Shown here: in pieces, positions 26,161 through 27,119 of the stretch | Position numbering within the stretch: the first letter of the stretch is position 1 | Layout: every line of letters begins with the position of its first letter | IMG/VR virus record: IMGVR_UViG_2541047750_000003 | Location: 1 to 52,473 of that record | Direction: 5' to 3' (one strand) | Origin: a virus | Taxonomy: Duplodnaviria > Heunggongvirae > Uroviricota > Caudoviricetes | DNA length: 52,473 nucleotides | The notes under the pieces: generated by a model | What the model was told of the DNA's origin: nothing | Databases searched by the model: none | The model's input: the letters and a program-made list of their open reading frames with translations, nothing else | Made by a program: the position numbers and the translations under genes

Positions 26161-26223
26161 ATGGACGCTTATTTATTTATCGGAATGGCGGCGGCTGTAA
26201 TATTGTTTTTGTTGTGGAAGTAA
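26161..26223 (+). CDS. micro-ORF 1 of array, single-TM peptide (20 aa)
   Basis: MDAYLFIGMAAAVILFLLWK; GAGG SD 10 nt upstream; stop overlaps next start (TAATG). Confidence 0.45.
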   Translation: MDAYLFIGMAAAVILFLLWK

Positions 26224-26333
26224 TGATTATGGCCGCTTACATCATTGCCGTATTAATCGGCGTTTCTGTGTTTCTTGCTGGTTCTATTATAGTTGCGCTG
26301 ATAAACGTATATATCAAGTATTTGGTGGGGTGA
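26223..26333 (+). CDS. micro-ORF 2, hydrophobic peptide (36 aa)
   Basis: MIMAAYIIAVLIGVSVFLAGSIIVALINVYIKYLVG. Confidence 0.45.
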   Translation: MIMAAYIIAVLIGVSVFLAGSIIVALINVYIKYLVG

Positions 26334-26337
26334 AAAT

Positions 26338-26412
26338 ATGATTGACCCGCTAATCATCCTTTCCTTATGCGTCGCCGTATGGCTGGCGATCATGATATTC
26401 ATTGAAAGCTGA
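26338..26412 (+). CDS. micro-ORF 3, single-TM peptide (24 aa)
   Basis: MIDPLIILSLCVAVWLAIMIFIES; GGGGTGA SD. Confidence 0.45.
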   Translation: MIDPLIILSLCVAVWLAIMIFIES

Positions 26413-26415
26413 AGC

Positions 26416-26514
26416 ATGGATATATTCGAACTGATGGCGATTATGTTCGGAATGATGTTAGGCATTGTCGCCATAATTATTATCATCGGCCTTGTTATGG
26501 GTAGCATCAAATGA
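26416..26514 (+). CDS. micro-ORF 4, single-TM peptide (32 aa)
   Basis: MDIFELMAIMFGMMLGIVAIIIIIGLVMGSIK; ATGA overlap with next ORF. Confidence 0.45.
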   Translation: MDIFELMAIMFGMMLGIVAIIIIIGLVMGSIK

Positions 26515-26591
26515 ACGCATACGAAATGCTATTGCTGGTGGCTGTAGTTGTAGTCATTGCTGTTGATTTTTATCGAGGGCTAAAAAGATGA
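26511..26591 (+). CDS. micro-ORF 5, single-TM peptide (26 aa)
   Basis: MNAYEMLLLVAVVVVIAVDFYRGLKR; ATGA overlap with next ORF. Confidence 0.45.
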   Translation: MNAYEMLLLVAVVVVIAVDFYRGLKR

Positions 26592-26659
26592 GAGAAGCAG
26601 ACTTCTTTTGCATGATTATAGTGATTGTCATCGTTGCGGTGCTTTTAAGTGTTAACTGA
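26588..26659 (+). CDS. micro-ORF 6, single-TM peptide (23 aa)
   Basis: MREADFFCMIIVIVIVAVLLSVN; GAGGG SD. Confidence 0.45.
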   Translation: MREADFFCMIIVIVIVAVLLSVN

Positions 26660-26674
26660 ATCTCAGGAGTTAAA

Positions 26675-26743
26675 ATGAAATGGCTTGATTTCTTTTTCCT
26701 GATTGTCGCGATTGTTCTTACCATGACAGCACTGACTCAGTAG
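26675..26743 (+). CDS. micro-ORF 7, single-TM peptide (22 aa)
   Basis: MKWLDFFFLIVAIVLTMTALTQ; AGGAG SD at ideal spacing. Confidence 0.5.
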   Translation: MKWLDFFFLIVAIVLTMTALTQ

Positions 26744-26751
26744 GTGAGCGA

Positions 26752-26826
26752 ATGAACGCTATTGATATTATGTTGATCGTGTGTACAGTTGCGTTATTTA
26801 TTATCTTGGTAATTATCAATGTCTGA
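26752..26826 (+). CDS. micro-ORF 8, single-TM peptide (24 aa)
   Basis: MNAIDIMLIVCTVALFIILVIINV; GGTGAG SD. Confidence 0.45.
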   Translation: MNAIDIMLIVCTVALFIILVIINV

Positions 26827-26887
26827 TAGTGATTTCTTAATTATAGCTATAAGCGCACTGTTGGTTGTTATTGTTTTCTCCTGGTGA
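26819..26887 (+). CDS. micro-ORF 9, single-TM peptide (22 aa)
   Basis: MSDSDFLIIAISALLVVIVFSW; overlaps micro-ORF 8 by 8 nt; weak SD. Confidence 0.35.
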   Translation: MSDSDFLIIAISALLVVIVFSW

Positions 26888-26895
26888 GAAATATT

Positions 26896-27039
26896 ATGTT
26901 TGAATTTATCGATCTACTGATGTTTTTGCTTTGTTCTGGCGTGCTTATCGTCGCGTTAATGTTATGCGTATACGCGATTGTAATGACTGGTGCGCTAATT
27001 TACAGAGAAGCGAAGCATATATTCAAGGGGCAACAATGA
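26896..27039 (+). CDS. micro-ORF 10, two-helix hydrophobic peptide (47 aa)
   Basis: MFEFIDLLMFLLCSGVLIVALMLCVYAIVMTGALIYREAKHIFKGQQ; GGTGAG SD; ATGA overlap with next ORF. Confidence 0.45.
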   Translation: MFEFIDLLMFLLCSGVLIVALMLCVYAIVMTGALIYREAKHIFKGQQ

Positions 27040-27119
27040 AAGAGCTATTCGACTGGTTGGAAGTATTAACATATTGCGCAAGTTTTGTGGCTTGCGTATA
27101 TATCATCAACAAATATTAA
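27036..27119 (+). CDS. micro-ORF 11, single-TM peptide (27 aa)
   Basis: MKELFDWLEVLTYCASFVACVYIINKY; AAGGGG SD (track ORF 26931..27119 is the same frame extended upstream). Confidence 0.45.
   Translation: MKELFDWLEVLTYCASFVACVYIINKY

Follow-up and report, generated by a model that had tools for sequence, protein, structure and literature searches.

What occupies the kilobase that reference annotation leaves empty immediately upstream of the terminase genes of a gut coliphage? We examined this question in a viral record of 52,473 nt (IMGVR_UViG_2541047750_000003, positions 1 to 52,473; the whole stretch is called the window here), the genome of a temperate, Nus-dependent, non-lambdoid coliphage of the mEpimmI group. 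At positions 26161-27119, 11 consecutive plus-strand open reading frames (ORFs) of 20-47 codons, each starting with ATG, follow one another between a gene related to gp49 and the small terminase subunit gene terS, amounting to 11 genes in 959 bp. Comparison with related genomes shows, at the level of sequence, that this array is a tightly packed block of independent micro-genes and not intergenic DNA. We consider it very probable that its units are real genes under purifying selection, conserved across the mEpimmI lineage examined and absent from out-groups.

The run of ORFs, first reported in a preliminary description made from the DNA letters alone, was recovered by ORF listing and is far from what chance produces. 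When the 959 bp were shuffled 2000 times with dinucleotides preserved, ATG ORFs of at least 18 codons containing a hydrophobic 15-mer numbered 0.9 on average and 6 at most, so that none of the 2000 shuffles reached the 11 of the real sequence. These qualifying ORFs cover 96% of the region, and the minus strand of the array region holds no such hydrophobic ORF. The preliminary description had cautioned that the strand is T-rich and that such composition biases any frame toward hydrophobic residues. As an explanation of the ORFs this fails, both by the shuffles and by the distribution of T within codons: T makes up 58% of second positions in the units versus 24% in large genes of the same genome, and an ordinary 30% versus 28% of third positions. 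Because the excess lies mainly at position 2, where hydrophobic codons need T, the T-richness appears to be largely a result of coding rather than the source of the ORFs. Screened with a general-purpose detector of neighbouring micro-ORFs with a predicted transmembrane (TM) segment, the whole 52-kb window yielded a single run, namely this array, and neither 251 kb of out-group phage loci nor phage T1 yielded one of at least three ORFs.

Evidence for selection comes from the relatives. The flanks of the array are 85-91% identical to those of mEp010, mEp013, mEp021, mEp044, mEp515, mEp554 and MagusPhagus, and the array itself is 99.8% identical to its counterpart in a prophage of E. coli M15 (NZ_CP185789). 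Besides the window, our comparative set of 54 genomes, all carrying the two flanking genes, comprised 7 phages from GenBank and 46 contigs from IMG/VR, and two more divergent genomes were added later. The same kind of array lies in the same slot, from the gp49-like gene to terS, in 56/56 of these genomes. The slot measures 318-1154 bp and holds 563 ATG ORFs of at least 15 codons, 494 of them hydrophobic; across the 54 genomes, intact micro-ORFs fill a median of 92% of it, and the low values seem to come mainly from a hydrophilic ORF, V, or from insertion of an HNH endonuclease gene. Where the gp49-like protein is only 59-64% identical, arrays are still present and the common peptide forms of two units, A and D, are unchanged. 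The common form of A, MIDPLIILSACVAVWLAIMIFIES, is retained in the relative L056 despite only 59% identity in gp49, and unit D is 100% identical in L056 and in a further relative, L057.

Within families of units, the ratio of nonsynonymous to synonymous differences (pN/pS, by the Nei-Gojobori method) is 0.22 when pooled and 0.09-0.37 per family, and rises to 0.98 and 1.52 when these alignments are read with a shift of one or two bases. Variable sites are distributed 124/76/231 over the three codon positions. Of the amino acid substitutions, 109 exchange one hydrophobic residue for another, 40 replace polar with polar, and the 72 mixed changes are mostly mild, while glycines, including those of GxxxG motifs, and the acidic residue near position 5 are invariant within families. 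The preliminary description had named frames broken by indels in relatives, and codon statistics like those of shuffled sequence, as signs that would speak against coding; the outcome was the opposite, with frames conserved in relatives and codon statistics far from those of shuffled sequence.

Hydropathy and charge counts bear out the peptide plan proposed earlier, a polar and often acidic head followed by a hydrophobic helix. Every one of the 11 units contains a 15-residue window averaging a Kyte-Doolittle hydropathy of at least 2.1, and the cores comprise 13-30 uncharged residues with a mean hydropathy of 2.2-3.6 and a low helical moment (0.09-0.78). The short polar head usually carries Asp or Glu near position 5 (M-x-x-x-D/E), and the core is followed by a neutral or basic tail; the net charge of the N-terminal tail is -1 or -2 in 9/11 units, and that of the C-terminal tail is 0 or positive in 10/11. 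These membrane calls are based on hydropathy windows and charge analysis rather than on a dedicated TM predictor.

The units are joined closely. Five junctions overlap, S/E (-1), J/B (-4), B/K (-4), L/F (-8) and P/D (-4), and at the remaining ones 3-15 nt separate the units; the distance from the gp49 stop codon to the start of the first unit is 2 nt in every genome examined. The five stop/start overlaps described previously are therefore present, with a reservation about the first. Unit E most likely starts at 26229, where its sequence aligns with MDAYII of relatives, and if so the TAATG overlap at S/E may not be the start used. The statement that nearly all starts have a Shine-Dalgarno (SD) sequence did not survive evaluation by duplex energy: only 6/11 starts have a strong SD, defined as -4.7 kcal/mol or lower; for comparison, energies of -5.5/-4.0 are attained by 11-19% of random positions. 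Of the five weak-SD starts, four sit at overlapping or 3-nt junctions.

Table 1. Units of the array and neighbouring genes in the window (SD, duplex energy in kcal/mol)
Feature	Positions	Strand	Product	Genomes	pN/pS	SD	Remarks
Unit S	26161..26223	+	20 aa, MDAYLFIGMAAAVILFLLWK	7/54		-5.9	invariant in these genomes
Unit E	26223..26333	+	36 aa from 26223 or 34 aa from 26229	45/54	0.25		
Unit A	26338..26412	+	24 aa, MIDPLIILSLCVAVWLAIMIFIES	50/54	0.29	-6.8	near-universal core unit
Unit J	26416..26514	+	32 aa	18/54	0.12		two GxxxG motifs, glycines invariant
Unit B	26511..26591	+	26 aa, MNAYEM...	50/54	0.24		core unit; ATGA overlap with J
Unit K	26588..26659	+	23 aa, MREADFF...	18/54		-6.4	ATGA overlap with B; paralog of C/N
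Unit C	26675..26743	+	22 aa, MKWLDFFF...	49/54	0.13	-6.9 (AGGAG)	core unit
Unit L	26752..26826	+	24 aa, MNAIDIM...	15/54	0.17		alternative of H at same slot (H/L z = 7-8)
Unit F	26819..26887	+	22 aa, MSDSDFL...	34/54	0.30		8-nt overlap with L
Unit P	26896..27039	+	47 aa	11/54	0.27		30-residue uncharged core and basic C-tail
Unit D	27036..27119	+	27 aa, MKELFDWLEVLTYCASFVACVYIINKY		0.09	-6.8	ATGA overlap with P; always last unit
Lysis cassette	24087..25235	+	66-aa holin, lysozyme, Rz with embedded Rz1				holin read as having 2 transmembrane domains (TMDs)
gp49-like gene	25574..26158	+	194 aa				phrog_1365 (no assigned function)
ORF V	27131..27274	+	47 aa, hydrophilic/acidic	4/54		strong	not a membrane unit
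terS	27285..27800	+	small terminase subunit (Sf6_terminase)				PF20901, E = 1.5e-37; downstream slot boundary

Layout, turnover and distribution

Clustering at 75% identity groups the units into families that keep a fixed order, [I/O/W/S]-E-[Z/U]-A-G-J-B-K-C-[H/L]-F-N-P-D, in which whole units are either present or absent. Across the 54 genomes an array contains 3-13 units, most often 10 and in mEp021 five; the array of L057 has 2. Families A, B, C, E and D (or alternatives of D) are near-universal, and D or its alternative forms X/g hold the last position in nearly all layouts. Around this framework the turnover of whole units is fast among relatives: 43 layouts are found among the 54 genomes, and none of the 132 genome pairs with 90-99.5% identical flanks (0/132) has a layout in common.

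How are the units related to one another? The preliminary description suggested one paralogous family expanded in tandem. We scored kinship against a null model that keeps polar head, core and tail separate, and under it the suggestion holds for part of the array. Paralogy across slots is clear for K/C/N (z = 4.4-6.0) and for U/B/G (z = 2.9-8.1), so that B is a paralog of U and G, two families absent from the window. H/L, S/I/W and D/X are divergent alternatives at one slot. Weaker links join S to I, an alternative unit at the same slot, and B to both P and L. Most other pairs have no demonstrable kinship beyond their architecture (median z = 0.45), and for them the idea of a single expanded family is not sustained.

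The arrangement of paralogs and junctions suggests how the array changes. Where G is absent, B carries the upstream junction of G, and K, C and N each occur directly behind the 3′ end of B. An 8-mer, TGATTATG, is repeated at the gp49/first-unit, O/S and S/E junctions, and unit E has a DNA repeat, TGATTATGG[A/C]CGCTTA, in common with the start of S. Paralogs in different slots, inherited junctions and a recurring 8-mer are what unequal crossover would leave behind, and they point to gain and loss of units by unequal crossover between paralogous units and repeated junction motifs.

Beyond the mEpimmI relatives the array was not encountered. In a tblastn search of 50,697 phage genomes with the concatenated peptides, only seven mEp-group records match, and a peptide-pattern scan of IMG/VR returned essentially the same contigs as a scan with gp49. 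A search for unit P in 5.8 billion proteins gave only 11 clusters; their identity is 70% or more throughout, and those that carry a name are all from E. coli. An exhaustive HMMER search of 1.84 billion representatives gave 2 true relatives of P. Two long HMMER matches of P are proteins with multiple hydrophobic stretches and were treated as spurious. Matches to the array occur in 35/5426 complete E. coli genomes. In 27 out-group loci whose large terminase gene, terL, is 37-68% identical, the slot contains ordinary genes and no array.

Annotation has largely passed over these genes. PGAP/RefSeq annotates 0/11 units, so that some 970 bp look like a gap. In GenBank records annotated with PHANOTATE, some of the units appear as hypothetical proteins; in the mEp021 record there are none. 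The paper describing the mEpimmI genomes, a phage group prevalent in the human gut, makes no mention of transmembrane or small ORFs (PMC11893012). We found no such array described in the literature on small membrane proteins, phage small proteins and enterobacterial intergenic small ORFs. Library scans and literature thus agree with the earlier remark that no phage system of this shape was recognised, and we regard as real and robust the conclusion, drawn from these searches, that the array is previously undescribed, wholly unannotated in RefSeq and apparently specific to one lineage of gut coliphages.

Possible action at the inner membrane

We propose that the array would be transcribed with gp49 and the terminase genes in a rightward late transcript, and that ribosomes would be handed from unit to unit across overlapping stop and start codons or gaps of 3-15 nt, with units behind longer gaps mostly carrying an SD of their own. 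From the anatomy of the locus, we infer that such co-transcription in the late block, with hand-over between units, is quite likely. The peptides would be too short for co-translational targeting and would instead enter the inner membrane post-translationally as single-span helices, and a membrane location is probable. Since the heads are acidic and the tails neutral or basic, the positive-inside rule predicts that the head would lie outside and the tail inside, as in the coat protein of phage Pf3; by this analogy, we give the N-out/C-in orientation an even chance of being correct. Once inserted, each helix may bind a membrane protein by packing, in the way known for small membrane proteins of bacteria. 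The invariant glycines, GxxxG motifs and acidic residues, together with the conservative substitutions, favour helix-helix contacts over bulk hydrophobicity and hence protein partners, although whether the units act by helix packing on inner-membrane proteins seems to us evenly balanced on the residue patterns. Taken jointly, selected genes, co-transcription, membrane insertion and partner binding make up an account that we rate slightly better than even.

What the helices would do there is a matter for conjecture. The core units A, B, C and D would serve late membrane events of the phage, most plausibly the timing of pinholin/signal-anchor-release (SAR)-endolysin lysis, with an accessory role for the variable units; this is a guess, and a doubtful one. 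Lysis tuning is reasonable for the core units because the endolysin encoded about 1 kb upstream looks SAR-like, and lysis of the SAR type is sensitive to membrane potential. Exclusion or counter-defence by the accessory units fits their rapid turnover equally well. An extension of the latter idea, which we consider improbable, is that the array is a phage-borne, recombining library of minimal TM helices, each an inhibitor of or decoy for a different membrane protein of the host or of a rival phage. Its targets would be such proteins as DNA-entry channels, membrane defence effectors or insertases, and unequal crossover would reshuffle the repertoire quickly.

Several points weigh against the proposal of selected, co-transcribed, partner-binding membrane peptides and its extension to lysis. 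The pN/pS values are pooled over non-independent pairs. The layout counts depend on the 75% identity clustering and on the calls of ORF starts, and some layout differences reflect these choices. Late-operon transcription is deduced from gene order only, the predicted insertion and topology come from hydropathy windows and a few charges per peptide, and no link from any unit to a partner protein emerged. Lysis timing does not obviously explain a range of 2-13 units and their rapid turnover. Some 0.9 kb, made up of a 340-nt gap and gp49, lies between Rz and the array downstream of it on the same strand, and the annotators of mEp021 (also of mEp013) place a terminator in the gap equivalent to 25236-25573; in a simple scan we found no terminator at the annotated position.

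At the opposite extreme from our proposal, the region might be non-coding on the plus strand, with an antisense ORF, a non-coding RNA or chance ORFs in T-rich DNA accounting for its appearance. The strand is indeed T-rich, and the only ORF of at least 60 aa in the region is an antisense one of 85 aa at 26253-26510, whose existence, noted in the preliminary description, is not in question. Its status as a gene is not supported by the substitution pattern: the excess of third-position changes and the low pN/pS are found only in the plus-strand unit frames, over the stretch occupied by the antisense ORF these selected frames change between all three phases, and the genomes differ in their longest antisense open stretch, which ranges from 53 to 103 aa. 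With no Rfam match in the region, and with the shuffles and the second-position bias of T already described, we regard a non-coding region as extremely unlikely. A related possibility grants translation and denies the peptides any importance, the ORFs serving to carry ribosomes across the interval between gp49 and the terminase genes or to shield the mRNA. The close coupling that runs the whole way from gp49 to terS would suit such a relay, as would the dispensability of units, which are lost without loss of the phage. The act of translation alone would not, however, produce an in-frame pN/pS of 0.22 where the shifted frames give about 1 or more, nor conservative substitutions; relay ORFs need not all encode a hydrophobic core of helix length; and the 2-3-unit arrays of L057 and of another relative, L030, make a long relay unnecessary. 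We judge this explanation very unlikely.

Two further explanations accept that the peptides matter. They could act on the bilayer itself in the manner of type-I toxins, their collective late depolarisation triggering or advancing lysis or host shutdown with no need of protein partners. The size and extreme hydrophobicity of the units match the smallest of these toxins, many units would be expressed together from one transcript, as the junctions imply, and the SAR-like endolysin system upstream would be sensitive to depolarisation. Generic hydrophobicity does not call for position-specific constraint, however, and the invariant glycine and acidic residues, with pN/pS down to 0.09-0.13, favour the partner-binding proposal instead. 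In addition, Rfam gave no antitoxin RNA family, there is no antisense promoter signal above chance and no toxin family match among the units scanned, strong SDs contrast with type-I toxins, whose translation is typically repressed, and early depolarisation during virion assembly would cost burst size; direct action on the bilayer is thus, in our estimate, rather unlikely. Alternatively, the locus could be the product of an arms race in which each helix blocks a different membrane protein, either inner-membrane proteins by which other phages bring in their DNA, for superinfection exclusion as with gp15 of HK97, or defence effectors of the host that are bound to the membrane, for anti-defence. 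Lysis-packaging intervals are a known place for accessory genes in lambdoid phages, and the array lies in a slot between these modules. Its units are lineage-restricted orphans, and whole-unit turnover, with the number of layouts and their divergence even between genomes with closely similar flanks, is what such a conflict might be expected to drive. Yet A, B, C and D, present in nearly every genome, are strongly conserved and not diversifying, no unit scanned has a PADLOC match, and a crude consensus scan gave no promoter signal above chance that could provide expression from the prophage. The exclusion proteins demonstrated experimentally in the mEpimmI group, lipoproteins and a repressor, are moreover encoded elsewhere (PMC11893012). 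As an account of the whole array, we find this explanation unlikely.

Whatever the function of its products, the array has several uses. About 1 kb that is empty in RefSeq is the most gene-dense stretch of this phage, and it offers a statistically clean example of annotation loss below about 30 codons. It also presents a natural series of minimal, evolving TM peptides, both core and accessory, with which to ask what such peptides do in infection, and it lets one see how an array of micro-genes may grow and shrink, namely by unequal crossover where units are paralogous or junctions repeated. Should specific membrane proteins be their targets, the units would be inhibitors that are compact and ready-made, and if the array were a library of helices it would represent a new class of locus for counter-defence or exclusion, modular and built of helices only.

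Neighbouring genes and further small ORFs

The preliminary description located the array between the lysis cassette and the terminase. On the terminase side, ORF V intervenes between unit D and terS; the immediate upstream neighbour is the gp49-like gene, and the cassette ends at 25235. The cassette looks like the pinholin/SAR type, an assignment made by eye, as was the count of TMDs. Its endolysin, at 24286-24777 (plus strand) within the ORF 24205-24777, has an Ala/Gly-rich N-terminal membrane segment, and the frame of the embedded Rz1 lipoprotein (24955-25167) lies within Rz. The gap at 25236-25573 contains no convincing ORF.

The gp49-like protein has an invariant H79/E80/H83/H87 and E106, followed by a long helical tail rich in Ala, Glu and Lys. 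It has no match in Pfam, PADLOC or PDB sequences, a Foldseek search against PDB gave nothing below E = 0.1, and its AF2 model has a pLDDT of 66. Identification as a metallopeptidase would rest on the HExxH...H pattern and on the nr label 'PolyVal metallopeptidase' of a 59%-identical relative, and was not used. On the other side of the array, ORF V is the sole ORF of the slot annotated by PGAP (WP_185737921).

HNH endonuclease genes are inserted near the array at positions that differ from relative to relative (L006, 2095-2580; L056, 2752-3273; L057, 5250-5753). One site lies inside the array slot (mEp013), another separates lysozyme from Rz and a third terS from terL, which suggests that the HNH genes of this neighbourhood are mobile, homing-type genes. 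A Mu-F-like head protein of L056 (635 aa, from 8491, running off the end of the locus) has an Intein_splicing Pfam match. Farther downstream in the window, the gene at 29417-30808 (plus strand) is named 'anti-CBASS protein Acb1 family protein' by PGAP in the E. coli M15 prophage; its equivalent in a relative has a Phage_portal_3 Pfam match, and the RefSeq name may mislead.

Other small hydrophobic ORFs are scattered through the window. The only other adjacent pair, at 11269-11376 and 11384-11500 (plus strand), encodes 35 and 38 aa behind good SDs (GGAGGGTG; TGAGGT). This region is 76-96% conserved in all seven GenBank relatives, where it is annotated as hypothetical proteins, and mEp021 has a 'putative toxin-antitoxin system subunit' under the match. 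Two isolated micro-ORFs on the minus strand, at 41849-41965 and 6211-6312, encode 38 and 33 aa with a hydrophobic core, follow SD-like sequences (GTGAGG; AGAGAGGA) and may be small membrane proteins that annotation has likewise missed.

Comparison with known systems

Family libraries place the array in none of the established classes. There was no significant match in Pfam for E, J and P, in PHROGs for S, E, A, J, B, K, C and P, or in PADLOC for the units scanned, and nothing at E <= 1 in NCBIfam for the ten units other than P. The best family match is that of P to phrog_920, a holin family, at E = 0.18. Holins are typically at least 60 aa long and combine one or more TMDs with a charged C-terminal domain. 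With 10/11 units at 20-36 aa, and this one match of P as the sole link to a holin PHROG, membership among holins or antiholins was rejected. Phage lysis regulators such as antiholins, LysA/LysC of P2, the releasin of Mu and RI of T4 are likewise small membrane proteins encoded near lysis genes, and they tune the time at which the membrane is breached; unlike them, most array units are far below the size of any described holin or antiholin, and their number varies widely.

The type-I toxins (Ibs/Sib, Ldr/Rdl, ShoB/OhsC, TisB/IstR, Hok/Sok) resemble the units as hydrophobic, single-helix peptides of 19-50 residues, compared with 20-47 here. Some, such as ibs and ldr, occur as repeated copies, and they are membrane-active when overproduced. 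In contrast to these toxins, the array has no antisense RNA gene that we could find, no structured leader hiding the SD and no family match, and it sits in an operon with strong SDs and coupled junctions. Nothing at E <= 1 was found in Rfam on either strand of 25200-27400, a search that a novel antitoxin RNA could escape. Promoter-like sites in a simple consensus scan numbered 6 against 9.3 expected from shuffles, with one weak minus-strand site in the array, and a similarly simple scan detected no terminator signal above chance inside the array, where terminator-like matches are weak. The label type-I-toxin-like, offered in the preliminary description, is thus one we do not retain: family membership fails on antitoxin RNA, on translational repression and on matches to toxin models.

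Closer in organisation are the psm-alpha operon of Staphylococcus and aureocin A70, in which leaderless paralogous peptides of 20-30 codons are encoded in tandem with their own SDs; the array is likewise tandem and partly paralogous. We rejected this analogy at the level of the peptides, because the array cores are uniformly hydrophobic with a low moment, whereas PSM-type peptides are amphipathic and exported by an ABC transporter. The annotated neighbours in the 6 kb surrounding the array are lysis genes, gp49, terminase and portal, with no exporter or immunity gene among them. Phage T1 also has small predicted single-span ORFs upstream of terS, isolated among ordinary genes and forming no run of three or more.

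For topology, the nearest precedent is the Pf3 coat protein, which has an acidic N-terminal tail, a single hydrophobic span and a basic C-terminus and inserts N-out/C-in through YidC without a signal peptide. Most units have a comparable charge pattern, their tails being neutral or basic. Pf3 coat is a filamentous-phage virion protein without sequence kinship to the units, and the topology of the array peptides is predicted from charge counts only.

Small inner-membrane proteins of bacteria, defined as having 50 residues or fewer, one TM helix and no cleaved signal peptide, bind a larger membrane protein and are often missed by annotation (PMC12648545). Members of this class, among them AcrZ, MgrB, MgtS, SgrT, KdpF and CydX, have in common with the array units their size and a single predicted helix without a signal peptidase site. 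They differ in being single genes that lie near, or regulate, their partners, whereas the array consists of 2-13 head-to-tail units in the late block of a phage and turns over by whole units.

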